A stretch of 62,429 bases of DNA, counting the filler, from Asterionella formosa (lineage: Eukaryota), in assembly GCA_002256025.1 (NCBI GenBank). It is 19 parts of 19 records of this genome, joined end to end, with 100 filler letters (N's around TTAATTAATTAA, not from the genome) between each part and the next. Parts side by side here need not be neighbours in the genome. Positions count along the whole stretch, not along the records: positions 24,507 to 26,288 come from NKIB01001203.1; 18 more parts are not named here. One strand, given 5' to 3'. The notes beneath the pieces are model-generated. The model saw only the letters and a list, made by a program, of their open reading frames with translations, was not told the origin of the DNA and made no database searches. Positions 2,070-62,429 of the stretch are shown one piece after another. How positions within the stretch are numbered: position 1 is the stretch's first letter; every line of letters begins with the position of its first letter. The translations under genes and the position numbers were made by a program.

Positions 2070-3674
2070 TTAGGGGTTTGGCAAATGAGGAGAACTCATG
2101 AAAAATCGATGTAGCTTTTGCATAGTGGATCGTGTTGGATCCGCCTTTTCACGGTACTGTTGAATCAAGTGCAGGGCTATCCGGATGGTCTCCTTCGTGG
2201 CAAGGCTCACTTCATCAGCAAGTCCCATCATCGAATGGTACCAATCTAGGACGATTGTGCCACCTTGTCGATCTAGTAATGTGTCCACCAAACGAGTGGT
2301 CAGTCCAGAATAGTGGTATAGTGTATCATCGTCGTCAAATGTTACATTGGTTTGGCTGTCCAACAGACCCTCCAAGGAAAGACGGCCAAGGTCCTTTCTA
2401 CATTGGAGAGGATAATGTAATTCACATGACAACATCATGACTGCCATGGCGATGGCAACAGATCGATCCTTGCCTTGTGCACAGTGAATCAAGACGCGAC
2501 GCTTGCTTTGTAAGTGTGACAGGCAAAAGATTATGGCAACTGGCATCCATCGTTCCAATTCTGTTTTGTCTCGTTTGCCCTCCTTCACTGGTAATTGAAG
2601 GTACCACTTTCCTTCGGGTAATGGGAGATTGTCTGTAAAGTCGGGATATTCCATGTCGGTAACATTGACAATGGCATCAAACGTTTTCCAGCACTGTGGA
2701 GGTCGTCCAGCCCGTCTCGTTCCAATGTAAATGCCAGTCTCTTCTCCAATGGCATCAAAATCACCTTGCAAGTCCGTGACAGTATCGTTGTTAGTATTAT
2801 TTGCTTCCATTAAAGCGTCAGCAGCCACAATCCGATCAATAGTAGCTTCGACCTCTTCATCGATTAATGGTTCCATCAAAATTTCATTCATGTTCTCCCA
2901 AAACAATCGAGGAATTAATTTTCTGCCCCACAGTTCATGATCATCCGCAGCACCAGGTGTATACCAAAAAGTGCCTTTCCAGCACCGATCAGGATGGTAT
3001 TCAGAACAATTCATACAAATGATGCTATAATAGGCTGACGATGATCCGTCGTACAATATCTCCCGACGGTGTGGGGTGATCCAAAATGGTCGTAATGGGC
3101 GCTTCAGTATTGTCACAAGCCATACTGGATCCACAATGGCGTGACTCTTATATAACAGATCCACTCGATCGTCTAAAATGTTGACCATGGCACTATGTTC
3201 GTCTGACGAAATGACCCAAGGAGTGTACAATGCCACATCCCACGGCTCACCGGTATCCAAATTACTGGAGAGTCCCATGTCATGACGAAATCGAACAACG
3301 ATTCGATTCAAAACAGCACACCAAATAGGTATCGTTCGTGAAAAGCTATCTGGCATTTCTTTCGATTTACTAGCATCCAATAAAAGGAGAGACCCCTCAG
3401 AACATTCGTCAGCAAGTTTTTGAATTAGATCCAGATTAAGTCGTTTGAGTGAAAAGTTCCAGACATGACCATCTGTGCTTTTAAAGTAGCAAGTGGAGGT
3501 TGTTGGAGATGGAGTATACCACGTCCCACATCGTTCATTACAAACCACAGGTAGCGCTGGATACAACGCAATGGTAGGTAGAACGACATTGTAATAATCA
3601 TATCGAATGGATAACAGTCGATGGCAAGCCCTGTTGGCTTGTTTGATAATTTTCTTTCGTTCCTCCCGATTCAG
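2070..3674 (-). CDS. RIT1: Initiator tRNA A64-2'-O-ribosylphosphate transferase (Rit1), 5'-partial
   Basis: Rit1 motifs NERCGTWY, CYFKSTDGH..WNFSLKRLNL, PDSFSRTIPIWCAVLNR and GAADDHELW; C-terminal DUSP-like HCAQGKDRS. The frame stays open to the contig end (..HRLLSIRYD..). Confidence 0.92.
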   Translation of the reverse strand: MNREERKKIIKQANRACHRLLSIRYDYYNVVLPTIALYPALPVVCNERCGTWYTPSPTTSTCYFKSTDGHVWNFSLKRLNLDLIQKLADECSEGSLLLLDASKSKEMPDSFSRTIPIWCAVLNRIVVRFRHDMGLSSNLDTGEPWDVALYTPWVISSDEHSAMVNILDDRVDLLYKSHAIVDPVWLVTILKRPLRPFWITPHRREILYDGSSSAYYSIICMNCSEYHPDRCWKGTFWYTPGAADDHELWGRKLIPRLFWENMNEILMEPLIDEEVEATIDRIVAADALMEANNTNNDTVTDLQGDFDAIGEETGIYIGTRRAGRPPQCWKTFDAIVNVTDMEYPDFTDNLPLPEGKWYLQLPVKEGKRDKTELERWMPVAIIFCLSHLQSKRRVLIHCAQGKDRSVAIAMAVMMLSCELHYPLQCRKDLGRLSLEGLLDSQTNVTFDDDDTLYHYSGLTTRLVDTLLDRQGGTIVLDWYHSMMGLADEVSLATKETIRIALHLIQQYREKADPTRSTMQKLHRFFMSSPHLPNP

Positions 3675-4631
3675 NNNNNNNNNNNNNNNNNNNNNNNNNN
3701 NNNNNNNNNNNNNNNNNNTTAATTAATTAANNNNNNNNNNNNNNNNNNNNNNNNNNNNNNNNNNNNNNNNNNNNGCAAGTGTGTATGAAAGATATCAGTG
3801 TGAATGTTTTTGTAAATGTATTGTCTGCACCAATTGAACTGAACAAAACTACTGAATGAAGAACAAAAACTACCAAAATTACCAAAACAACAAAAACAAC
3901 AACATGAAATTCTATCAAGTTCGGTTTGCTCGCTGTGAAATGTTTCCTTAGAAGACACACTCGATCGTTCAAGTAACAACTGGTTTGGGACCCAGTAACC
4001 CCTACGGAGGTACGCCCTCGAGTTCAATTGTCTTCTTCTGGTCTCATCTCACAACAGGTAGACCGTTCTAACAAACCAAATGAGGCGGCGAATTACAACA
4101 ATTTATTATTATAGAGCTAAAGTCTTATGAAGCTTTTCTTTTCGTGGATGACTATTTTGTATTATAGCAGGAGGCATAACCTTTTTTTCGGTTATGATAT
4201 GACAATAACTTTGTCTTATAGAAGCTATAGAACGATTGGAGTTATTTCATTTCATTTCATTTTATCGGTATCGGTATCGGTAGTCTTGAACGAGAGCATC
4301 ATCATTGGGTTTTAGGGTTTTAGACAACGAATAAAGTGAACAACACTTGTTGCGATTCAAGACCTTAGCGACCGTAACTGATTTAAAAACTGGGCACCAA
4401 CAGGCTTAGTGGCAGGCAACAGGCAACAGTTTCTCACCCGCCGTACCGTGATCTCCCAGGGAACCAACGTATAAATTAAATGTTTTCAATAAGAGGGAAA
4501 AATCCCCGAAGGCTCTTTTCCAACCAGACATGAGTTTGTTTATGTCAACGTAATCTCCAGAGTTCAATGAATCGAGCATGCTTGCCACACCGGACCAGGC
4601 GTACAAGTATCGAATAGGCTTTTGATCGGGT

Positions 4632-4722
4632 AGAAAAGAAAAGAAATCAGATGAAATCAGATGAGATCAGATGAGATGAAATGAGATCAAATCAGATGAA
4701 ATGAGACCAAATCAGATCAGAT
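4632..4722. repeat. Pentanucleotide microsatellite (AGAAA/ATCAG/ATGAG/ATGAA)
   Basis: Visible 5-nt periodic tract. Confidence 0.9.
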
Positions 4723-5468: not shown

Positions 5469-5561
5469 AGAACACCATATGTTCAGGACTGTTGCTACTG
5501 CAGTGGGACAGTAAATCATCATAGTTTTAGGATCGTATGATCGAAAAACTAAAAACAAATA
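5469..5561 (+). repeat. One unit of the 92-bp tandem repeat (truncated by contig end)
   Basis: gaacaccatatgttcaggactgttgctactgcagtgggacagtaaatcatcatagttttaggatcgtatgatcg, also at 15857-16250 (-) and 23670-23987 (+). Confidence 0.9.
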
Positions 5562-5661: not shown

Positions 5662-5897
5662 CGTACGTAGACGAAATTTCGAAAAGTCAAATGAATTATT
5701 TGAAACATCAACTAATTCAGTCTCGCGTTCAAAATTCATTGTGAAAACTTCACATGAAACAGTTAAAACTTCACATGAAACCGTTAAAAGTAATCTTTTT
5801 TACGTGAAGAGTGGCATTAATGCATGTGAAGTACCACATAATTAACACTCATACGTAGACGAAATTTCGAAAAGTGGCGTATTTCGCGGCTTAGATG
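5662..5897 (-). mobile_element. CATCTA-ended AT-rich element (A), inserted in copia integrase
   Basis: Near-identical in reverse to 29742-29980; terminus CATCTAAGCCGCG; internal repeat with 188-bp period. Confidence 0.85.
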
Positions 5898-7448
5898 TGA
5901 GAGAATTTCAAGGAGCTGCTGGAGAGCAGCTTTGTGGGTTGCAGTGAGTGGTGCAACGGGAGACCGAGTGGTGGGATGTAACAAGGCATAGGCAATGTCC
6001 TGCAAACTGGTTGTGATGAGGTCAGTGGATGAATTACAGGGTAAGTGGACTTTGGTTGGAAACCACGAGACAGTATCGCAGATTCTGATTGAACGTGTGT
6101 CCCACATCCAGATGCGGTAGCAGCGATAGGAATCCACAGCAGGGCCGACATACCAACCATCGAGAGCATGCGGAGCCCATGTGGTGCGGTGTTGGGGCTT
6201 GGCATGAACAAGGACCCGACAACCGGGTGGAGCAAGGGGGACACGGTTGTAATCATAGGTTCCATTGACCTGTGCCCAAGCAGACAGTTTGGGGTTGATG
6301 CGTGAGCCACGGAGGAGGTTAAGAGTAAGTTCGGCTTGAACTAGTAGTTGGTCCCACAAGTGGAGAGGAAAGTGTTTGTCGACACTGCATAGACCGGCAA
6401 TGAAATGATTTTGAAAGGTGCGAATTGCACGTTCAGCGGCATTGCGACGATGGACAGCCGGCGGGACCAACTGAAAGTCAATAGCTTCGGCGTCCAAGAA
6501 GTCTTTGAGGAGGGTAGAACACTCATTGTCAAGGCGTTGAAGTTTGGGACGTAGGCCAGCTTTGCACAAACGTTGATGTAATGCTTTATATGCTGCAAGG
6601 AGGCAGGAAGCGGTTCGGTTATGGAAGGGCTGAACGAAAATGTAGTTGCTGTCATAATCATATAAAATCATAATGTAGTTGTTTCCAGTGCTGGAGGGGA
6701 GTATGAATTTTCCGGTTTGATCAGTGTAAATTTGGCCTGTGGGTGCAATAATGGACGCAAAACACATATGGGTAGGGGTTGCAAGACACTCAGGGTGGAA
6801 ATCAGCATCACCCAGCACATTGGTAGTAGGAATGGATGCAAGTTCAGGCTCAATAATAGTTGGGGGCACACGTGTGGATCGTACGTTTTGACGTGTTTGA
6901 TCGAGGTGGCCTTTGATGGTTGCGATGGAATGAGGGGGATGTTTGCGTAGTGTAGCTAAGGTCAGACCTGGAAAATTGGCAAGATACCCATGGAGTAATG
7001 CGCTTTCCAAAGTGGAGAGAACAGGAGAAAAGAGGGCCGCATGGGCAAAAGCAACAAGTGCTGGTGCATTGGGACTGCCAATGGCGGCAGCAGCGTAGTG
7101 GGTAGGGGTAGGCAATGGTGGATCAATTGAGGTGGTGGTGACATGCCATAATCGAGTGGTGGTGGAGCGATGGCCCTGAAGGATGCAATGACCATCGGAT
7201 AAGACAGACATGTGTAGTTTGGTGAAGAGTACCTCGTAGCCAGAATCACATAGTTGTCCAATGCTCAATAAAGAGCAATTGTGTAGACCAGGGACAATGT
7301 GTACATGACGAGCAGCAGGTAAGAGCATAGGTAAAGATAATTCGGCCTCATGTGTAGATTTAACATGGTTGCCGTTAGGAAGTTGAATGGTGATAGGGTT
7401 GGTGGTAGGTCGTTTGTTGATGACAGGTAAATCAACAGTGGCGTAATT
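5898..7448 (-). mobile_element. Ty1/copia (CoDi-like) pol fragment: protease C-terminal part and integrase
   Basis: SLLSIGQLCDSG; integrase core IYTDQTGKF..YDYDSNYI..RLDNE..HRRNAAERAIRTF; GWYVGPAVDSYRCY. Interrupted at 5897. Confidence 0.93.
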
Positions 7449-9434: not shown

Positions 9435-10990
9435 TCTGCTCTGCAATGAATCTTCCACTTACCTTTGGATTTTGGTCTACGCAAGGTAACTTTGGTGCAG
9501 TAGAGGAACTGGTAGGAAACGCTGAAGTTACTGCAACCGCTCTTGCAATGAAAGAGGCGTGTCAGGAGGAAATATATCTGACACTCAATGTGCATGAACG
9601 AGGAGACTGGGCTGACAAAGGACGTGATTTTCAGTGGTGGAACAGTCTGACTGGTACGGATCGCTTGCCTGTACTGAATAGGCCTCGACTCACTGTTAGT
9701 TACGATATGGGCTGGCAGCAGCGGTCCAGTGGGAATAAGTACAACTCTGTGAGTGGACATGATTTTTGTATTGGCAGCTACACGAAAAAGATACTAGACT
9801 ACAGAGTGAAATCGAAGGTCTGTAATGTGTGCAACAGGGCTATACGGTACAAGAAACCAATCAAGGAACATGTTTGTCCCAAGAATCATGTAACTGGTAG
9901 TTCGAAAGCAATGGAACCAGATGCTGGTGTAGAAATGATGATTGATGCAGTAATGAAAAACAAAGTTATCTACTCTGCAATCATCTGTGATGATGATTCT
10001 ACTATTTGAGCTGTTTCTAAGTGGTCCTATAAGGAGATATTGAAACTTCAGCCATCCTTCCAATGGCCAAGAACATTGAAAGGATCAAAAAAATCGGACA
10101 AAGGATCCCTTCCACTGACTGTACCTGAACCTACATTTCTGTCTGACCCATCCCACAGAGTACGGATCCTTCTCCGCCCAGCTTTTATGAAATCCAATGG
10201 CCGAGTCTCCCTCGAGCGTCCCTCAAAAGCAGATTGTCTCCGGTTGAAAATTTCTATGGCGCTTGGATTTAAAAAAACCGGAACCTTTCTCTGGCCGAAT
10301 TTAGTATTTCCTCCAAGGCACCAATCAACCATTTATTTGGCTGCCACAATTACTGCTCTGAGACATGGTGCCCTGTAAAAGCAGGAAAAATGGTTAGTAA
10401 CGGAAAATATCATGACAAGGAAAAGGAAAAAGATTTTTACAAATGGTTAATGCTGCATGTTGCAACGAAAGTCGAAGGCGAAAAGCTACTATCATTGCAT
10501 CATCCCTTTGACACGCAGATTAATGAGGCAATGAACAATGCAGTGTTGCGACGATGTCCAAAAAACCAAGGTGTTTGCGGGATCTGGAGGCCTTCAATAT
10601 CGAGTGGCTTCGATTGTTGGGCAACACACACAAGGAGCAACACAATACACAAGGAATGTATACAAGCAATGTGGAATGCAGATGTCAGCACTGCAAGAAT
10701 CCTTCTGGAGACAAAAAGAAAAGCGACGAAGTGACGATGGAGCCTATAAAGCACAATTCAAATGAAAGAGGAAACGAAGCAAAAGAATACATGCAGCACG
10801 ATTCGAAACAGTCAAACAGGAAAGGCAAGATAACAAATCAGGTAAGACTTACTGTTCTGTTGTTGCGCTCAGAAGGGAATATCAGGAAACAAGAAGGAAA
10901 GGAACAAATGTCTGCAATCATTGTGGCCGCAATGATCATCAAAGAAAAAGCAGCGCACTCTGTCCATTCAATGTACCGGCAGGCAAAGTG
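9435..10990 (+). pseudogene. Kolobok/Mutator-like DDE transposase pseudogene
   Basis: VSYDMGWQQR..SVSG..IG..TKKILDYRVKSKVCNVC..HVCPKNH..SSKAME..ICDDDS, SDPSHRVR, TQINEAMNN..RCPK; internal TGA at 10007-10009 and frameshifts. Confidence 0.8.
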
Positions 10991-11320: not shown

Positions 11321-12185
11321 CCTTTCCTTCTTTTTCTATATTTTACTTGCTCGACTTATTGCTGTAGACTATTTGTAGCTGCTCCGAAACGGAGAAGGCC
11401 ATTGAGGCACATCTCAATTTTGACTCACTACGGCGACATGCAAGGTTAAAATATGCAACAGCTGTTTCTTAACGAAATAACGGATTCAATTCCTTATTGT
11501 CAGCTACTCAGCATCCTTTCCTTCTTTTTCTATATTGTACTTGCTAGAGTTATCGCTGTAGACTATTTGTAGCTGCTCCGAAACGGAGAAGGCCATTGCG
11601 GCACATCTCAATTTTGACTCACTACGGCGACATGCGATGCTAAACGATGCTCAACGAGTACCAACGGTGCTTTATTTCTAATCTGGCAGGCTATTGTAAT
11701 CTCTACAATCAACAATGACTAAACAATGTGTCTACAACATCAACTACTACTACTACGTGTGCTGAATTCTACAGTGTGAATCTTCCTCTTGCATGTGTTA
11801 TTCTTTGCCAGTTCAGATCAAAGTGATATGTCAGAGCGGAAGAAATTATAAGTGTATCGGAATTGGCGACTCTTTCGTTCATTATATGGTGAAAGCAGCA
11901 TAATATTGCGGCGGAGCAGCATCATTTCGCTTTTATACTGTTGCGATGGCTAGTTAGTCAACATATATTGTCACGAACACACATAATTATTGGTGTGATC
12001 ACATAATTATTCGATAAGTGAAATAAATTTTTGTTTAACCCGAATAAATTAGGGAAAAAGTAGCATAATGTTTCAAAAAAGTAACATAATATTTTAGAAA
12101 AGTAACATAATATTTTAAAAAAGTAGCATAAATACGTCACTTAAGGCATAAATTCGAAAAAGTGCCGTAAACGGCGTCTTAGATG
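11321..12185 (-). mobile_element. CATCTA-ended element (B), inserted in a copia LTR; far end not seen
   Basis: Terminus CATCTAAGACGCC at 12185; the uninterrupted LTR (24507-24610) shows the insertion point after cagtacta. Contains 21-bp tandem repeats (12055-12130) and a 194-bp-period duplication (11321-11635). Confidence 0.7.
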
Positions 12186-12492
12186 TAGTACTGTGTTAAT
12201 CGAATACAGTTGATGAAATTGATAGCAACGAAGAAGTTGTCAAACTTAAACTGTCACTTTACTAACTGGATTGTTTCGAGATAATGGTCTCGAAACACTC
12301 TTATTACTCACATTGCATTTTAACATTTTTTCCTGACCTCTGATTGCTTTTCCTTGCGTTGTGCCTTTTACCACGTCAGCCCAGGTAAATCTTGGTAGCG
12401 GCTGTACGGTTTTAACTGTAGTACTGTACTCTCTCGTGTCTACTATACCCTTCACTTCTGTCCTGTGGCAGTCAGCTCGCATTTTTCCAACA
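12186..12492 (-). repeat. Copia 3' LTR, interrupted at 12185
   Basis: PPT-like aaggagcg (12493-12500, minus) followed by TGTTGG; 12186-12244 matches 24507-24565 at 58/59 nt. Confidence 0.8.
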
Positions 12493-13106
12493 CGCTCCTT
12501 GGCTGTTGCCAGGGAACTGGCAGTCAGGGTATCGACGTGCGCAGCTCCTTGAAGCACATTTCGGAATGTTCTGAACAGGTTTCCTTGCAGTGGTTTCGCA
12601 AAAAAATCCCCCAACATTTCCAACGTTGGACAATGGCGAATGGTGATTCCTTCATCTACCGATCGATCCTTAATCCAGAAATAGCGGATGTTGATATGCC
12701 GAGACTTTGGCCCTGCCGAAATTCGTCCGTTCTTCTCGAGGTTAATTGCGCTCTCGTTGTCTTGTTCGAAGAAACTTTCTTGAATCTTGTATCCCTGTGC
12801 TTCAAGAAACATTTTTACCCACAGCGTGTTTGGGAGATAATCGCTGGCACCCACAAATTCAGCCTCCGTCGAACTCTTTGTGTTCAATTTCTGCTTGGTC
12901 GACTTGCATATGATGCCTCCAGTTCCAAAAGACATCACGCCACCGGTGTGACTCTTCATGTCAGGGTGCACAGCAAAGGCCGCATCCACCCACGACCTCA
13001 TCTTGCACATGTCGTCGGCTCCAATGGTGTATTCCACATCCATACTTCCATTTATGTATTCCAACACCCGTCGTAGCTTTTTCTGATCTTGTTTGGTGCT
13101 TTTTGA
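12246..13106 (-). mobile_element. Copia RNase H (pol C-terminus); ORF runs into the 3' LTR
   Basis: WVDAAFAVHPDMKSHTGG, KQKLNTKSSTEAEFVG, EQDNESAI, SRHINIRYFWIKD, MLGDFFAKPLQG. Confidence 0.95.
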
Positions 13107-15812: not shown

Positions 15813-15856
15813 CCTTAAAGTTCGATGATCTTAAATTCATTTACCGGTACCGGTAC

Positions 15857-16876
15857 TGTCCCGCTGTAGTAGCAGCAGTCATAGACATATGGTGTTCTAT
15901 TTATACAATCCTAAAACTATGATGATTTACTATGGTGTTCTATTGCTTGCTTATTACTCTGACTACCGGTACCGCTTTTCAGTTTCACGATCATACAATC
16001 CTAAAACTATGATGATTTACTGTCCCACTGTAATTGCAACATTCATGAGCATATGGTGTTCTATTTATGTTTAGTTTTACGATCAAACGATCCTAAAACT
16101 ATGATGATTTACTGTCCCAATGTAATTGCAACAGTCATGAACATATGGTGTTCTTTTGGTTTTTAGTTTTATGATCATACGATCCTAAAACTATGATGAT
16201 TTACTGTCCCACTGCAGTAGCAGCAGTCCTGAACATATGGTGTTCTGTTGCTAGTTTACTACTCCGACTACCCCCAGTATATCACTTACTACCTGCTACT
16301 GGTACTCTGTATATATATATGATATATTGTTATTGTCATATGATGTACCGGTACACATGAAGAGCTCCCGACCAAAAAAGGGGCTTAAACAATTTGCTAC
16401 CAAAACCCTGGCGGCTTTTTAACGGTCTAAATAATTAGATTCAACGGACGTAGAAAATATCGATGCAAACAAATTTCAGAAACAATTCCGGTACACGTAG
16501 TCGTGGAAAACAATGGAAATATAGTGCATTGAATATTTTCGAATTATGTATATGCGAGTATGATCATCTCAACCATATCAGATGTTCCATATCGAGAGCG
16601 CGTTTGAATTTTATAAATCTATAACACTTAATATATATATATATATATATATATATTTAAAAATTTTATTTCTATATGCATGGCATATATATTTTTGAAA
16701 TTGTTCTTTCATGTTAACAAACAATGCCTGCTGCTTCATGAAAAGATACGTCGTAGTAAAGCACATTAAAAGAAAAGAAAATTTTCGCAATACATAACGA
16801 AAAACATTGTGACTTCGACACATTGCGCATTCGAAGGATGGAGAATGTTTAAGGTAATGAAGCCATCAATGTGGTA
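15857..16876 (-). repeat. About 1-kb dispersed repeat ending in a 92-bp tandem array
   Basis: Reverse-complement homolog of 23052-23990. Confidence 0.9.
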
Positions 16877-22624: not shown

Positions 22625-23990
22625 ATTTGTTAGCTAGTAGTCATGTTACATTGAAACAACGACACGCAATTCCATCGTATCCTCTTGCTTCACTTACCAC
22701 AAATCAATGCAACTGAGGATGCATAAGTCTGTAATAGTAACTTGTCAGTAAGCCAAATTCTTGAATAAGTAAGTTTCGGGTATCCAATGTTGTCAAATAA
22801 AACTTACCGGTTCAGTTTTGTCATCTTAACTTTGAGAGTAGGTAAACATTTTGTCAGCTTTGTTCCAACAGAAGTGAATAGTTCCAACGAGCGACAAGAG
22901 CACTTACGCAATTTGGTTTTGTTTTACATTGGTGCTCCCCAACAAGCGAAACGAGCTGTTTAATCAACTGAGAAAAAAGGAAATGTGGCTGCGTTTAGTT
23001 AACAATTTGTTGTTGTGCTGCCTGTCTCCCAACGATTGTCATCCAAGTAGCTACCACATTGATGGCTTCATTACCTTAAACATTCTCCATCCTTCGAATG
23101 CGCAATGTGTCGAAGCCACAATGTTTTTCGTTATGTATTGCGTAAACTTTCTTTTCTTGTCATGTGCTTTACTAGGACGTATCTTTTCATGAAGCAGCAG
23201 GCATTGTTTGTTAACATGACAGAACGATTTCAAAAATATTTATGCCATGTATATAGTAATAAATTTTGTAAATATATATATATATTAAGCGTTGGACATT
23301 TATAAAATTCAAAGGCGTTCTCGATATGGAACATCTGATATGGTTGAGATGGCCATACTCGCATTTACATGATTCGAAAATACTCAATGCACTATATGTC
23401 CATTGTTTTCCACGACTACGTGTACCGGTATTATCTTTGAAATTTGTTTGCATCGATATTTTCTACGTCCGTTGAAACTAATTATTTAGACCGTTCAATT
23501 GCCGCAAGGGTTTTGGTAGCAAATTGTTTAAGCCCCTTTTTTGGTTGGGAGCTCTTCATGTGTACCGGTACATCATACGACAATAACAATGTATCATATT
23601 TATATACAGGGTACCAGTAGCAGGTAGTAACTGATATACTGGGGGTAGTCGGAGTAGTAAACTAGCAACAGAACAGCATATCTTCAGGACTGTTGCTACT
23701 GCAGTGGGACAGTAAATCATCATACTAGTTTTAGGATCGTATGATCGTAAAACTAAAAACCAATAGAACGCGAAATGTCTATGACTGCTGCTATTGCAGC
23801 GGGACAGTAAATCATCATAATTTTAGGATTGTATGATCGTAAAACTAAAAACCAATGGAATACCATATATTCAGGACTGTTGCTACTACCGTGGGAAAAT
23901 AAATCATCATAGTTCTAGGATTGTATGATCGTAAAACTAAAAACCAATAGTCGGAGTAATAAGCGAGCAACAGAACACCATATGTTCTGG
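22625..23990 (+). repeat. Non-coding dispersed repeat with terminal 92-bp tandem array (about 3.4 units)
   Basis: 22626-22741 matches 26179-26288; 23052-23990 matches 15857-16876 in reverse. Confidence 0.88.
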
Positions 23991-24506
23991 TATACCTACC
24001 CGGTAGTTATCATAATATTGCTTTTATAAATTTAACTGGCGCGATAATTAGCCAGGCTGACGAGTTACTACCGGTACCAGGTAGTACGTCTACCGGTACA
24101 TCTTTTATCAGCACCTTTAAGTAGCACCTACGGTTATGGTGGTACTATGTTTTTCCTATTATTTTCTGTCGCAGCTTTGTAGAGAGGCTGTGAAAGTCAA
24201 AGCGCTGCCCCCCGCCCGCCCTCTATTATACCGGAAAAATTTGGTACATCACCCATTATCGTGCGTTGCAACGGAACGCGACAGGGTGGCTGTGGTTATG
24301 GAGCAGGGGGTAGAACGCCACAACATGACGAAGTCCCAAGGATCATGAATGGGAAGAAAACTTTGCTGCATTCTGGTGGTACCATTGGACTTGGGAAACA
24401 GCGAGGNNNNNNNNNNNNNNNNNNNNNNNNNNNNNNNNNNNNNNNNNNNNTTAATTAATTAANNNNNNNNNNNNNNNNNNNNNNNNNNNNNNNNNNNNNN
24501 NNNNNN

Positions 24507-24610
24507 TTTGACAACTTCCTCGTTGCTATCAATTTCATCAACTGTATTCGATTAACACAGTACTAGGTTCAAGGCCTACGATACGGTCGAATACGGTAGT
24601 TGTTACAACA
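24507..24610 (+). repeat. Copia 5' LTR, 3' part ending ..TACAACA
   Basis: Overlaps the LTR at 12186-12244; the CAACA end is the inverse of the TGTTG start; gag lies downstream. An alternative CAACA end is at 24673. Confidence 0.7.
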
Positions 24611-24624
24611 TTGTTTCGAGATAA
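24611..24624 (+). promoter_or_regulatory. Putative self-priming primer-binding site TTGTTTCGAGATAA
   Basis: Directly after the LTR end; no TGG; perfect complement of LTR sense sequence TTATCTCGAAACAA (12284-12271, minus). Confidence 0.6.
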
Positions 24625-24763
24625 AATAAAACAAAAGGAACAGCCATTCACATGGAAGGCTGGAGTTTCAACATTTTAATCTAATCAAGTTTTTTGAACA
24701 CTTTATAGATTCGAGTAGCGCAGCTGAAGGCCGCAGCCACCAATCAAGGAACCAACGAACCCC

Positions 24764-25511
24764 ATGAGCGCCACCCCAGACGCAACGACAAGCGGCAGCT
24801 TAGCGAGTGGACGCGGCAGCACCGGTGGGAGAGGGCGAAGGGACAACCGTCCGCGCGGGAGCCGTGGTGGCCGGGCAAAGACACAAGCAACAAGCAACAG
24901 CTTTGGCATTTTTAAGGGCAGCACAGAGGGCATGAACGGAAACGTATTTGAACGCTATGAAGAACAAAGTGACAGACGCCAGTACGCCAAAACGTTAGAA
25001 GTTCTAGACGGATATGTGAGGAAAACACTGAAGTACTCTGAAGACCTTGCCCCTTTGTTTGCCGACACCATGGCGGTTCCCATGGTAGACATGCCAGATG
25101 ACCTAGATGACGATGCAGGACTGACCATGAAAATGATTTTCGCAGAAGAAGTAAAAACGTATGTCAAGCGCAATCATACCCTGAAGAGCAACCTAGCAAC
25201 AGTGTATGCGGTGATTTGGGGCCAGTGTAGTGATGAAATGAAGGCAAAGGTCAAAACGCACGATGACTACAAGGACAAGACTGCCAACAACGATTGTTTT
25301 TGGCTTCTAAAACAGATCAAGTCGATTACTCTACAGTTCGATCAGAGCAGGAATGGTTTCATTGCACTTTTGGACGCCCAGACCAGTTTCCTCAATTGTC
25401 GTCAGTTACAAGGACAGTCCGCAGAAGACTACGTCGAGTGTTTGCGAGGATGGGCTGAGACCATTGAGTACCATGGCGGCACCGTGGCAGCAAATTACAA
25501 ACTGGTACCCT
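24764..25511 (+). mobile_element. Copia (CoDi-like) gag, truncated by an AT-rich insertion
   Basis: RG-rich N-terminus, FKGSTEGMNGNVF, VYAVIWGQCSDEMKAKV, DCFWLLKQIK; abrupt switch to AT-rich DNA near 25512. Confidence 0.85.
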
Positions 25512-26288
25512 TGTCTGCAAATAAAAAATATCATGAAAATATGATCAAGGGTATCGTATGCTAGCTAAGTGGCACAGGATTTTCGTATATATGATAATTT
25601 TTTGATCAAAAATATGATCAAAGTATCTTGTATCTATGATGATTTATTAATATGTTACCAACCTTGAAGTATAATGATAATAAGAACATTATCATCACAC
25701 AATGTATATAAACTGATCAACAACATTTCCCATCAATATCATAAATCTTCTCATATTATTTTCACTTCTCGTGATCGCCCGATGTAAATTATAACTACAA
25801 CGTATCCTAAAACCAGCTCAACTCTATGCTATCATGTGAATTGTTTCATCGTAAATCTATGCTAAACATGATCATAATTCTAATCACAAGCATTGTTCAA
25901 AATAGATTAAAATGGATCATAATTTAACTATCAAGTTAAGCAATGCTATCTATTAATCTACATGCCAGCAACCCAATGTTTCTCTCTCTACTCGGCTCAA
26001 TGTATATTGATCCTGTCTCGCCCTTTCCTTCCTCTATTCTGAATCTTGCGCCATGCAGTGCTTAATGTCTCGCATTTGTCCCTGCAATTAGTGACACTCT
26101 GAACTCACCGACTATTCCGTTGTTTGATTGGTTTTATTGTCCTATGCATGCAGTTACAGTTACAATGAGAAGGAATGGTTTGTTAGCTAGTCATGTTACA
26201 TTGACACAATAACACGCAATTCCATCGTATCCTCTTGCTTCACTTACCACAAATCAATGCAACTGATGCATAAGTCTGTAATAGTAAC
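25512..26288 (+). repeat. AT-rich non-coding insertion; continues as the repeat at 22625-23990
   Basis: Compositional break; last 110 nt match the start of the contig at 22625. Confidence 0.7.
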
Positions 26289-30382: not shown

Positions 30383-31315
30383 CTGCAGACAATAACCACA
30401 TCAAAGCCCTTGACACCATCTTGTGTCCTACCACAGGCTGAACATCTGGCACTGGAAACAAGTTATTCTCGATATCGGGGAGCCATTGGTGAACTCATAT
30501 GGGCCATGATTACCTGTCATCTTGAACTCAGTTTCCTGTTGTTAAATTGAGTCAATTCTCCAACCACCCTGCTGCCCTTCACTAGTATCAAGCTGTCAAA
30601 TGTGTCTTCAACTATCTTGCTGGCACTCTGGACCATGGTCTCACATACTGGCACCCTTCATCTCATCCTGAACTCCCTAGCATCTCTCCCCCTTCTCGGC
30701 TTGCCAACCCAGCTGATCAACAGCTTCATCATGATGTCTCTGAGGCCAGTGAACGCTATTCCCCTTTTTCTGTTTTTGGCTATGTTGACTCTGATTGTTG
30801 GGCTACTGACATATGGCACCAATGATCAATCTCTGGCATTGTTTTTAAACTTACTGGTGCTGCCATTTCCTGCAAATGCCGTGTACAACCCACTATTTCA
30901 TTGAGTTCCACTGAAGCCGAATTTTTGGCTGCTAGTAATGCTGGAAAAATGGCCCTGTACCTCCAATCCATCCTTGATGAACTCCATGTTCCCCAGACAT
31001 TTGCTACCCTCCTCCACAAAGATAATTGCGGTGCCTTGCTTATGGACCATGCTGGTCAACCCACTAAGCAATCTCATCATATTGATATATGACATTAGTA
31101 TGCTCTCACTGACTGGGTTGAGCGCGATCTGGTTGCTCTTGAAGGTGTTGCATCTGGTCTCAATGCAGCAGATGCCATCACCAAACAAACTGGTGGAATT
31201 CTTTTTGCCTGGCATCTTGACAACATCACTGGGCATCTCGCCCCACTGTATGTTTCATCTGTCACACTTGCTTCTTCCCTCAAACCTGCCCTTCTTTGAG
31301 CGGGGGGGGGGGGGG
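30383..31315 (+). pseudogene. Degraded copia RT/RNase H followed by poly-G PPT
   Basis: YRGAIGELIWAMITC, GYVDSD..WATD..SISG, SSTEAEFLAASNAGK, HHIDI, NAADAITK; many stops and frameshifts; G-run at 31302-31316. Confidence 0.9.
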
Positions 31316-58674: not shown

Positions 58675-58774
58675 NNNNNNNNNNNNNNNNNNNNNNNNNN
58701 NNNNNNNNNNNNNNNNNNTTAATTAATTAANNNNNNNNNNNNNNNNNNNNNNNNNNNNNNNNNNNNNNNNNNNN

Positions 58775-60554
58775 TTTTGGATCGCGTATCCGTGCATGTT
58801 CATTATCTTGTCCGTGACATTTTTAGTTAGGACATCTGCAGGATTCTTTTCCGTATTGACGTAGTCAACCTTAATCGTTCCGTTTTCGACTTGTTCTCGT
58901 ACATAGTGGTATCTTACATCGATGTGTTTTGTACGTGCCCCGACCTGATGATTTTTCGTTAAATAAATCGCGCCGGTATTGTCCTCACCCATTAGGCTAG
59001 GCATCACGATAGTGGTTATTTCTCCCAGTAGATTCGTTCCGAAGACAGTTTCCTTTGAGCCGTTACTGAATGAGTGCGACATATTCAAACTCGGTGCTTG
59101 ATTGCGTTACGATATCCTGTCCTTTTGATATCCAGTGAGTTAGGGCGCACCCTTCGATCGTGCCTAAATAACCGCTGACACTCTTTCGTGTACCGGTATC
59201 AGGATTAGAGGCGAAGGGGCTATCCACGACATCTTGAATACGTAGCTCGTTGGGAGCACGTAGTTTCAATCTGCATGCAATGTCCCCATGTAGACACAAA
59301 TACCCGAGTAGGCGTTCCAATGCTTGCCAGTGCGTTTCGCCTGGGTTGTCGAGGTGCTGTGACAATTCACGACATGCGTTGGCGCATACTGGCGATATTT
59401 TCTTCACGAAGTAAAGTATCTTTCCAACGAGGGAGCGATATTCCTTATTCTTGATCGTCTCTCCTCGGTTCTTACTTAGGACCGTTCCCGGGAATCCCGG
59501 CGTTGAGGCTTTCTTTGGTTCCTTTCCAAATATAGTCGTGTAGTCATTAATCATATCTTTGACAAAGTCCTCCATTTCGGACTGTAGATAGCTTCCTTTC
59601 TCGTCTTCGCCCCATTCGTACCATACTCCTAGATGCTTGCGTGGCTGGCCAAGCTCTTTAAAGTTGAAGTATTGTTTCAGTGCCAACTTGAACTTGTTGA
59701 CGTCGGCTTGGGTGCCGGTTACTGCAAGGTCATCGACGTAGGTGCATAGCAGTAGGGTAAGGATGCCTTCTCGTTTTTCGTAGAACACGCAGGGGTCAAC
59801 ACGGCTTTGCTTGAGTCCCATATCAAGTAGGCAGTCTCGGAGTTTCTTGAACCATTGCCGTGCAGCTTGTACCTTGCCGTACATTGCCTTATCCAGTCGG
59901 ATGCAGTTGTCAGTCATAGTCGTTTCATTTTCGTAGTGGAAGTCAGCGATTCCATCTGGCCATTCTATGTAGATTTCTTCGTCGAGGTCGGCTTCGAGGA
60001 ATGCCCCTTCGATGTCCACAATTTCATATACAAAATCTTTCCTGTGTAGGGTAATTGTAAACACTATACGTAGGCCAGTATCCGTAACAACAGGTGCGAA
60101 TGAATCTGTGAAGTCGACACCTGGTATCTGCACATAGCCATTTACCACAATACGGCCCTTGTAGTGCGTAGTGTTGTCGTGCTCGTTCTTTTTTTTTAAT
60201 ACCCATTTTGCTCCAAGTGGCTTTCGTCCATTTAGATTCTTACGGGGATGTAGTTTCCACACTTTGCGGGAGTAGAAGTTTTCAATTTCTGCTTTGATTG
60301 CCTTGGTCCATTTGTCTTTTTCGTTACTTAATAGTGCCTGCTTGTAGCTCTTGGGTTCCAGTGGGTCAGAAGCTAGGCTCGTTGAGTGTGCTTCCTCACT
60401 AGGTTGGTGCTCTTCAATGGTATCTTCGATGGTGTCATCATCCAATATTAGCGTGCGTGCTGCGGATGATTGCTGACGTGTGCCTGCACGAGTAGGAGTA
60501 GGTGAGGTCACAAAGCCTGTAGATAGCCTATTCATTTCTCGATCGAGCTTTGTA
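58775..60554 (-). mobile_element. Ty1/copia RT and RNase H, frameshifted
   Basis: EPKSYKQAL, KWVLKKK, YKGRIVVNGYVQIPGVDF, YVDD, QSSTEFEYVAL, EDNTGAI, TKHIDVRYH, NPADVLTK; frameshift near 59063. Confidence 0.95.
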
Positions 60555-60786
60555 NNNNNNNNNNNNNNNNNNNNNNNNNNNNNNNNNNNNNNNNNNNNTT
60601 AATTAATTAANNNNNNNNNNNNNNNNNNNNNNNNNNNNNNNNNNNNNNNNNNNNTCCTTATCCCTGTCACTTGATAGTGCCTAAGTAACTTGAGCATCAT
60701 AAACTGGCGCCCTATCACCCATACGCTTGAAAGGAAATGAGTACATACCAGTATACAATTTTCAGCTCATAATATGCATCCAATTT

Positions 60787-62429
60787 ATGGCAAAAAAGAA
60801 ATCGACTGTGCCTTCCGGCAAGGCGGCTCAGTCTATTAGCAGCACAAACAAAGCGAGGATGATTGAACATTGTGAACATTGCCTATTGAACATTTCTGCA
60901 AATATGGAAGTGTTGAAAGCGAAAAATAATGGAAAACTACCATATGGCGCAATTTCTTGTTCTGTGCACGATGTACAAGAACTTGTCCCATGGGAGACTA
61001 CACAGAAAGTGAAATACTTTCTAAGGAAAATAAGGTTATCTGGTGGCACCAGTAGCTACCAGAACGGACAAACAGCCTGAGGAGGATGAGCAAGAGGATT
61101 AACAAGAAAGCGAAATATCTATGCTGACAATGGAAGGTGTAGAAAATTACAGCTATAGCAGAAAAAATCATCATCATTCTTCCATTACTACTATGATTAT
61201 GTCTACAAGTTCTAGTTTGCCTCCTGCCAGGCAGCACTACTACTGCATCAACTGAAAGCAGCAGCAGCACCATTTCTGTCACTGCAACCCTGCCCTATGG
61301 TGGTCATCCAAAGAAAAAGTGAAAGAATGTATTTCCAATTCGGCAGCAGAATATATGGTGAGAGAAGAGGAAAAAGAAAAAGGAGGAGAATCACGAGTGA
61401 AGAGAAATACACTTACCTGTATAATACTGAGAGAAAAGGAGGCAATTGGTATTCTTCCTGCTGTCAATATTAATTTCGAAACAGTTAGAACATGTGCAAA
61501 AAGAAAAAACCATCAAGGAACAAACACAGAATGCCTCTCACCTATGCTTGAAGTGGAACTTTACATTGTGGAGCTCATTGATCAGTTGAGTAAAATGCGT
61601 TCGCCCATCATATGCCGAGAGTCGCCCATCACATGCCGAGAGGGACTGCAACTTGCAAATTCACTTCTTGGGAAAAAAGTTTTGCGAGATTACGCACAAA
61701 CAAAAAAGCGGTAGCAGAGCGAGGCTGGGGACCTTTGAACTATAATTGCTTGTTGAATCCTGAAATACAGCTGACGAAATTTGGTGTTGTCCCATTGAAT
61801 TGAATCTCACACAGCAACAGAACCTCTATTACACCTGACCAGCTCAACCTGCAAGAAGGACTTTCAGGAACTCTTACAAATCAAATTGTTGAATACATAA
61901 ACAGAGAAGATGTGCGAAATGGTAATGATGCAGCAGAACATGCAAGGAAAAGAAATCAAACAGCACAAGCAGCAATCGACACACACAAATGAATGACCAC
62001 AGGACTGCACTTTGCTGTTGGAAACACTTGTCTAGGACCACCGCTTTTTGAGCATATGCTGGAAATCAAACACCGGCATGAAATCCAGGAACAAAACAAG
62101 AAGCAGAAATTGAATCAACGGTTTTTTGAATTGTCACAGAAGGTACAGGCCATCAGAGAGACTGGAAAGGAAGCTGGAAGCTACAACGTAGCTGAACTGA
62201 AAACAGTGGTGACATGGTACAAGCGCAACGGCGATGCGCCGCTTCCAATAACCAGACAGAACTTGTTGGCAAGATATTTGGAGACTTGTTGCCGTGGAGA
62301 AAAGGATTCTCCATATCCAATTCGGCCTCTTGATGTTGTGCTTGTGGGAGGGCAGGAGCTTAGTAGGGATGAGGGCGATATTGCAGTGGTGTTGATAGGC
62401 GCAAGCATTTCATGTGGCTGAATGCATTT
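60787..62429 (+). pseudogene. Internally deleted pogo/Tc5-like transposase
   Basis: HTH-like SPMLEVELYIV..SPITCREGLQLANSL joined directly at about 61668 to the C-terminal WEKSFAR segment seen at 17079; extra TGA at 61990. Confidence 0.6.

Follow-up and report, generated by a model that had tools for sequence, protein, structure and literature searches.

Covarying complementarity between primer-binding site and LTR points to Tf1-like self-priming in diatom Copia retrotransposons

Two fragments in the window, by which we mean the whole 62,429-nt stretch of Asterionella formosa DNA that was analysed, are the ends of a diatom Ty1/copia LTR retrotransposon, and the best-supported reading of this element is that it primes its own reverse transcription in the manner of Tf1, which we consider likely. 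Its 5' LTR is followed directly by a primer-binding site (PBS) that is perfectly complementary to a segment inside the same LTR, the two arms pair in the predicted RNA fold, and seven further families each carry a pair of their own at the same place. In the mechanism we propose, transcription would start at or next to TTATCTCG.., at LTR position 209, where an initiator-like CA is followed by TT; the RNA would then loop back across two U5 stem-loops so that its first 14-15 nt pair with the site directly after the LTR. The element's RNase H would cut the RNA after this duplex, and the freed 3' end, abutting U5, would be extended, which would begin minus-strand DNA synthesis. Self-priming is also the best reading for a clade of diatom Copia elements to which the window family belongs.

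Positions 1-30150 and 58675-62429 of the window were put together artificially from unplaced contigs of ~1.78 kb, arranged from longest to shortest with 44 N, TTAATTAATTAA and another 44 N between them, so that adjoining pieces are not genome neighbours and the two element halves must be treated as separate fragments rather than as one locus. One fragment lies at the very start of contig 24507-26288 and holds the 5' LTR end and the start of gag; the other, on the minus strand of contig 11321-13106, holds the end of a Copia pol with its RNase H motif. A preceding sequence-only reading of the window had stitched the LTR together across these two contigs. The overlap on which it relied is real, with 58 of 59 nt identical between 12186-12244 and 24507-24565, and all the coordinates it gave proved correct when we re-read the sequence.

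The window contains other repeats and mobile-element fragments. A 92-nt tandem repeat family, itself within a larger repeat, occurs at 5470-5561, 15854-16253 and 23671-23949, and again at 748-2149 of a metagenome contig, L004, in which a Copia 3' LTR adjoins a copy of the larger repeat. The same repeat is uninterrupted at window positions 22625-24213, which therefore serve as an empty-site comparison for the L004 insertion. Further mobile-element fragments lie at 9437-10006 (+), 5820-7448 (-), 59066-60553 (-) and 30826-31092 (+), their types being a Mutator-like transposase, a Copia integrase C-terminus (SH3-like), a distant Copia RT (RVT_2) with 23% identity to the window family, and a Copia-type RNase H recognised by eye. 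A host gene, Rit1, encoding initiator-tRNA phosphoribosyl transferase (Pfam Rit1_C, E = 5e-63), lies at 2073-3674 (-), and a link between it and the Copia element is not evident.

Additional copies of the element were sought by scanning metagenome contigs with a 29-nt LTR pattern, which returned five contigs (L001-L005), and these read continuously through the LTR that had been stitched from two contigs. Four of them (L001, L002, L003 and L005) run unbroken through the LTR into TTGTTTCGAGATAA and gag, and L004 reads ..GTTGTTACAACA (..TACAACA) followed by unrelated flank DNA. The reverse complement of L003 is a full-length copy of the kind that the sequence-only reading had called for in order to fix the LTR ends, with flank, 5' LTR, 14-mer, ORF and 3' LTR in that order, the 3' LTR ending ..AACAACA and being followed by GGT. 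Its LTR pair aligns over 353 nt, and the LTR is 352 nt long, TGTTG...CAACA (TGTTGA...TACAACA in the 5' LTR of L003). The LTR end at 24610, as first proposed, is thus fixed by two independent LTR-to-flank junctions at ..CAACA, one in L004 and one at the 3' LTR of L003, and by contigs of two DNA runs, X2 and X4, that break exactly at the LTR end base. These runs belong to a set of four public runs whose contigs we aligned on L003; being assembled contigs, they do not show transcript starts or ends. They have loose ends at both LTR borders and an LTR depth ~8 and ~3 times that of the interior, and one RNA-library contig spans U3-R-U5 and, as an assembled contig, is uninformative on the start. With the complement at LTR positions 209-223, the presumed U3 is ~208 nt and R plus U5 144 nt long. 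A search for a target-site duplication gave no match for L003 or L017, a relative described below. Two other delimitations of the LTR were considered and are wrong: an end at 24565, where the window contigs stop matching, reflects the truncation of the copy in contig 11321-13106 at LTR position 307, and a 185-nt LTR starting at TGTTAAAATG after GGTCAGGAAAAAA is at odds with the L003 LTR pair, which reaches 352 nt.

The public runs also indicate variation within the family. At plus-strand positions 160 (the start of the U3 palindrome described below) and 122 of L003, contigs of X2 (DNA) and X15 (an RNA library) differ upstream while keeping the palindrome, R and U5, which implies a subfamily with another U3, and other public-run contigs diverge at LTR position 234. 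Run X1 places 20,885 contigs on the single 5.8-kb element of L003, which implies very many copies or variants of the window family in that sample. The element part of the contig is present in many freshwater and estuary runs, RNA libraries included.

In its intact form the element is ~5.7 kb long, with 352-nt LTRs and a single gag-pol ORF of 1710 aa; in L003 the first ATG of these 1710 codons is codon 13. The assignment to Copia, already made from the sequence alone, is borne out by an RVT_2 reverse transcriptase (Pfam, E = 9e-19, residues 1140-1374 of the L003 polyprotein), a gag zinc knuckle (Pfam zf-CCHC, residues 375-390), an integrase fold upstream of the RT, and a Copia-type RNase H tail, which is present in the window's own pol fragment. 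Pfam, PDB sequence and PDB profile searches found no integrase in the polyprotein; an AlphaFold model of residues 590-900 (pLDDT 79) matches the integrases of RSV, HIV and PFV (Foldseek, E = 2e-8), and since this fold lies upstream of the RT, the element has the Copia order gag-IN-RT-RH. Pfam gave no match to an aspartic protease between gag and IN, where a candidate protease motif recognised by eye, LLDSQST, is invariant in the polyprotein alignment. By tblastn, residues 1-262 of the L003 frame match window positions 24728-25513 at 97% identity; contig 24507-26288 diverges from L003 beyond ~25512, and its ORF stops at 25564. At the other end, the pol ORF extends ~245 nt into the 3' LTR (window 12246-12492, minus strand), as it does in relatives. 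The sequence GGAG(T/C)G directly followed by TGTTGG, at the junction of PPT and LTR start, is conserved across families; it is also coding (..EERVG..) and is therefore under double constraint. Relatives with a species name come from diatoms, namely Fragilaria crotonensis (up to 76% identity), Epithemia and Nitzschia, and the neighbours of the element in a protein atlas are Bacillariophyta, while no relatives were found among viral contigs. The features of the window copy are collected in Table 1.

Table 1. Features of the Copia element fragments, in coordinates of the window.
Feature	Position	Strand	Basis or remark
3' part of the 5' LTR (positions 249-352 of 352; presumed R/U5)	24507..24610	+	alignment with full-length copies; contig begins inside the LTR
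U5 stem-loop: 13-bp stem with three G-U pairs, plus inner hairpin	24541..24597	+	MFE and centroid folds
Primer-binding site (3' arm), ATTGTTTCGAGATAA; first base is the last LTR base	24610..24624	+	paired in the MFE fold; invariant in 5/5 copies carrying the PBS
Untranslated leader, PBS to gag ATG	24625..24763	+	
N-terminal gag coding region	24764..25512	+	tblastn, blastn
3' LTR, positions 1-307 of 352	12186..12492	-	cut off after ..ACAGTACTA, unrelated sequence beyond
Presumed self-primer (5' arm), TTATCTCGAAACAAT, LTR positions 209-223	12270..12284	-	invariant in 7/7 copies; would be the first R bases
Palindrome TGTTTCGAGA-CCATTA-TCTCGAAACA, presumed U3/R border	12272..12297	-	
Initiator-like CCATT	12283..12287	-	matches CAHW; predicted +1 is the first self-primer base
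Polypurine-tract-like CCAAGGAGCG, directly before the LTR start	12493..12502	-	
C-terminal pol (RNase H and tail; L003 residues 1425-1710, 96% identity)	12249..13106	-	

The core of the sequence-only reading was that TTGTTTCGAGATAA, at 24611-24624, directly follows ..TACAACA ending at 24610, that the same LTR family contains its exact complement (minus strand, 12284-12271), and that no TGG-type PBS follows the LTR. All three statements hold (the same 14-mer stands on the plus strand at 12271-12284), and the polarity is that of a primer with its 3' end against U5, the end of U5 being by definition the position of the primer 3' end. Counting the last LTR base, the A at 24610, the complementarity extends to 15 nt. 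Within the window TTGTTTCGAGATAA has two exact matches and, when up to two mismatches are allowed, three, where shuffled sequence yields 0.60 on average; in 20,000 shufflings of the LTR that preserved its dinucleotides, complementarity anchored at the LTR end never reached 14 nt, the maximum being 13. Both arms are unchanged in the aligned copies that carry them (Table 1), and other LTR columns vary. The comparison of public-run contigs, in which neither arm contains any of the variant places listed (40 of 147), is no basis for invariance.

The RNA segment that begins at TTATC and ends with the PBS is predicted to fold at -50.3 kcal/mol (MFE; z = -5.95) with all 15 arm pairs formed, and extending it by the whole leader leaves the duplex intact. 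In this predicted fold the 15-bp duplex of 5' end and PBS encloses two stem-loops, of which one is the stem that had been noted between the arms, ACTGTATTCGATT (24541-24553) with GGTCGAATACGGT (24585-24597), present as described with 13 bp, three G-U pairs among them, and part of the MFE structure. Two changes in this U5 stem in the diverged 3' LTR of L003 are pair-breaking rather than compensatory. A further element of the window family, found in 1/8 lineages, is the palindrome at the presumed U3/R border, whose upstream arm repeats PBS bases 2-11 and makes a 10-bp hairpin with the primer sequence. If the RNA is made to start 40-45 nt further upstream, the palindrome captures the primer sequence in the predicted fold and the PBS is left unpaired. 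As a speculation, this U3 copy of the PBS could stop U3-containing RNAs, such as read-through transcripts or the 3' copy of R, from priming.

Whether PBS and LTR complement vary together across families, a check that the sequence-only reading had itself suggested, could be examined in more distant elements. A polyprotein profile search yielded 22 Copia-bearing relatives (L006-L027), in contigs, among them ones of 321 kb and 163 kb, that are filed under bacterial or archaeal metagenome bins and are evidently mis-binned eukaryotic contigs. Their identity to the window family is 30-59% in the best tblastn segment. Seven of the 22 (L006, L009, L010, L011, L017, L022 and L023) have both LTR and leader and were testable; together with the window family these make up eight lineages, among which amino-acid identity in RT/RNase H is 39-58% (L017 being outside the matrix). 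Twelve loci (L008, L012-L016, L019, L020 and L024-L027) lack the leader and so fall outside the test. Two more, L007 and L021, have the ..TTTCAACA end and a leader, with no complement in the only 89-92 nt of LTR present, and the 5' end of L018 is not recognisable.

In every testable relative (7/7) the coding strand has two perfectly complementary inverted arms of 14-17 nt, the upstream one inside the LTR and the downstream one starting at or right after the final A of the conserved LTR end ..CAACA. The PBS sequences of the eight lineages are all different and none begins with TGG; the LTR complement lies 56-149 nt upstream of the PBS, and in each lineage 0/3000 shuffles reached the observed pair length. 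Covariation was counted by a script anchored on the LTR end, MAFFT having left the upstream arms of the eight families out of register. With the last LTR base taken as position 0, all eight lineages have Watson-Crick pairs throughout +1 to +14 (112/112 cells), with two to four pair types per position, whereas position 0 itself pairs in 5/8 and positions from +15 onwards in at most 3/8. The MFE fold of the interval forms every arm pair in 8/8 lineages, with z between -3.4 and -6.4. The inference of self-priming drawn from the window thereby gains strong and independent in silico support from seven further families, each with a different pair at the same place, and this covariation is the decisive evidence.

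The LTR ends on which the count is anchored differ in how they were fixed. That of L017 is fixed by the element's own LTR pair, inside the 321-kb contig, and that of L009, ..CAAGA, is putative. In L011 the 3' LTR copy can be matched up to a point 18 nt ahead of the arm, so that either the 3' copy is truncated or the LTR ends earlier there. Other inverted pairs of at least 12 nt at a spacing of 60-300 nt were confined, in 127 kb, to two clusters of long inverted repeats. Perfect inverted-repeat clusters with arms of 20-61 nt, MITE-like and unrelated to the Copia element, lie at 19601-19876 of L017 and 4620-4908 of L018. A separate peculiarity of L009 is that an additional ~880 nt (3818-4700) separate the end of pol from the start of the LTR, possibly a further ORF.

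Self-priming predicts that the complementarity should border the first base of the transcript, for which a diatom initiator, TCAH(+1)W, has been proposed (PMC4686930); its authors report the motif in 67.9% of 80-nt upstream regions (PMC4686930), and it is a weak motif. In 7/8 lineages a TCAHW is so placed that its +1 coincides with the first or second upstream-arm base, and in three of those seven it is unique within the LTR. The window family lacks a full TCAHW and has CCATT, a match to CAHW, in the same register. Across all eight lineages the complementarity ends at the initiator-like +1 or one or two bases upstream of it, so that it borders the predicted first transcript base, as self-priming predicts. 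On this indirect evidence transcription would start at or next to TTATCTCG.

The same observations bear on the alternatives. The duplex could be real and selected and yet have its primer in trans, supplied by a second genomic RNA in the particle, through its 5' end, or by a short RNA cut from LTR transcripts, or it could act mainly in packaging, cyclisation or translation control. Covariation shows a pairing requirement without telling cis from trans, and the palindrome of the window family could yield a short hairpin RNA; we nevertheless regard these possibilities as unlikely, given that the downstream arm abuts the LTR end, where the 3' end of a primer must lie, in all lineages, that the cis fold is the MFE structure in every one of them at the z values given above, and that the complementarity stops at, or within two bases upstream of, the initiator-like +1 throughout.

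Priming by a host tRNA or an internal tRNA fragment, with the LTR complement incidental or a tRNA mimic, has in its favour that most Copia elements use tRNA-Met or half-tRNA primers (PMC6317226). For the diatom elements this reading is close to refuted, and we allow it very little probability: TGG is absent after the LTR, Rfam gives no tRNA-like match, and the PBS differs in every one of the eight families, finding its match each time in that family's own LTR, so that no single tRNA fits. ARAGORN, applied to the window, found 0 tRNA genes there. By the rules of tRNA structure, the 15-mer would fit neither a T arm, lacking G53 and psi55, nor an anticodon arm. That the complementarity arose by chance, or through misassembly or stitching of repeats, might be suspected because the window copy is split over two short contigs and because several metagenome contigs are circularly permuted or cross from one copy into another. 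With no shuffle in 20,000 reaching 14 nt, and with the same architecture in independent records that include an element with both LTRs in the 321-kb contig, we consider such an origin practically excluded, and self-priming in cis remains the reading that we prefer.

Among gypsy elements, self-priming is established for Tf1, and it has also been put forward for Tj1 and the Tf1/sushi group; in these elements the LTR complement is taken to be the mRNA 5' end and no tRNA primer is used (PMC4600332). The diatom element resembles Tf1 and Tf2 of S. pombe, Tj1 of S. japonicus and Tf1/sushi elements in having a PBS directly after the 5' LTR that is complementary to the same LTR (PMC4600332), and it is like Tf1 in the predicted U5 stem-loops between the two arms. 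It differs from Tf1, a gypsy element, in being a Copia element with the order gag-IN-RT-RH, and, unlike in Tf1, where the mechanism has been shown experimentally, its start site and RNase H cut are predictions. The duplex measures 14-17 bp in the diatom families and 11 bp in Tf1, and we know of no Tf1 counterpart to the U3 copy of the PBS found in the window family.

The sequence-only reading had contrasted Tf1 with Copia elements as normally tRNA-primed, which is right for most Copia but takes no account of the plant Copia lineage TAR, including Houba and Osr-1, for which self-priming has already been predicted (PMC6317226); Copia self-priming as such is therefore not new. Like TAR, the diatom element belongs to the Copia superfamily, and its PBS is expected to pair with RNA of the element itself, a prediction in both cases; unlike TAR, whose hosts are land plants, the window family has a diatom host. 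With fungal GalEa Copia elements it shares the absence of a tRNA-type PBS. In GalEa the final A of the LTR is part of a conserved stretch that occupies the place of a PBS, and a local hairpin just after the LTR, the Conserved Hairpin Site, has been described, for which the authors report finding no complement in U5 or R (PMC5445492); in the diatom elements, by contrast, the partner lies inside the LTR, 56-149 nt upstream. The CoDi elements are likewise hosted by diatoms, as the names of the window family's relatives are diatom names, and their reported LTR lengths of 153-844 nt (Maumus et al. 2009, PMC2806351) include the 352 nt of the window family. The main text of that paper mentions neither tRNA nor priming nor a primer-binding site, and our full-text literature search, which for PMC2806351 covered the main text, returned no proposal of self-priming for diatom elements; an earlier proposal for CoDi, which the sequence-only reading had allowed for, was thus not found.

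The diatom elements accordingly appear as a new member, and probably as a whole new clade, of an already known priming mechanism. A bolder version, which we put forward tentatively and think rather improbable, is that self-priming is ancestral and general in a large diatom Copia clade, independent of Tf1/sushi gypsy elements and of plant TAR, and that the window family has added a U3-decoy checkpoint, whereby the decoy hairpin would leave only RNAs begun at the correct initiator able to prime.

In practical terms, the PBS/R pair, a GGAGYG directly followed by TGTTGG at the LTR start and the ..CAACA end together provide a precise signature for annotating such elements, whose PBS may be missed by LTR finders that rely on tRNAs, and the predicted first transcript base is a direct target for 5' end mapping. 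Copia elements are reported to be the dominant, stress-activated transposons of diatom genomes (PMC2806351). If the diatom clade falls on the other main Copia branch (PMC5445492), the trait arose twice or is ancient. If a self-primed clade exists outside land plants, fungi and vertebrates, priming without tRNA would prove to be widespread in Copia, with a bearing on a suggested scenario in which a hypothetical precursor of LTR retrotransposons primed itself and the use of tRNA primers is a rather late acquisition (PMC3601003).
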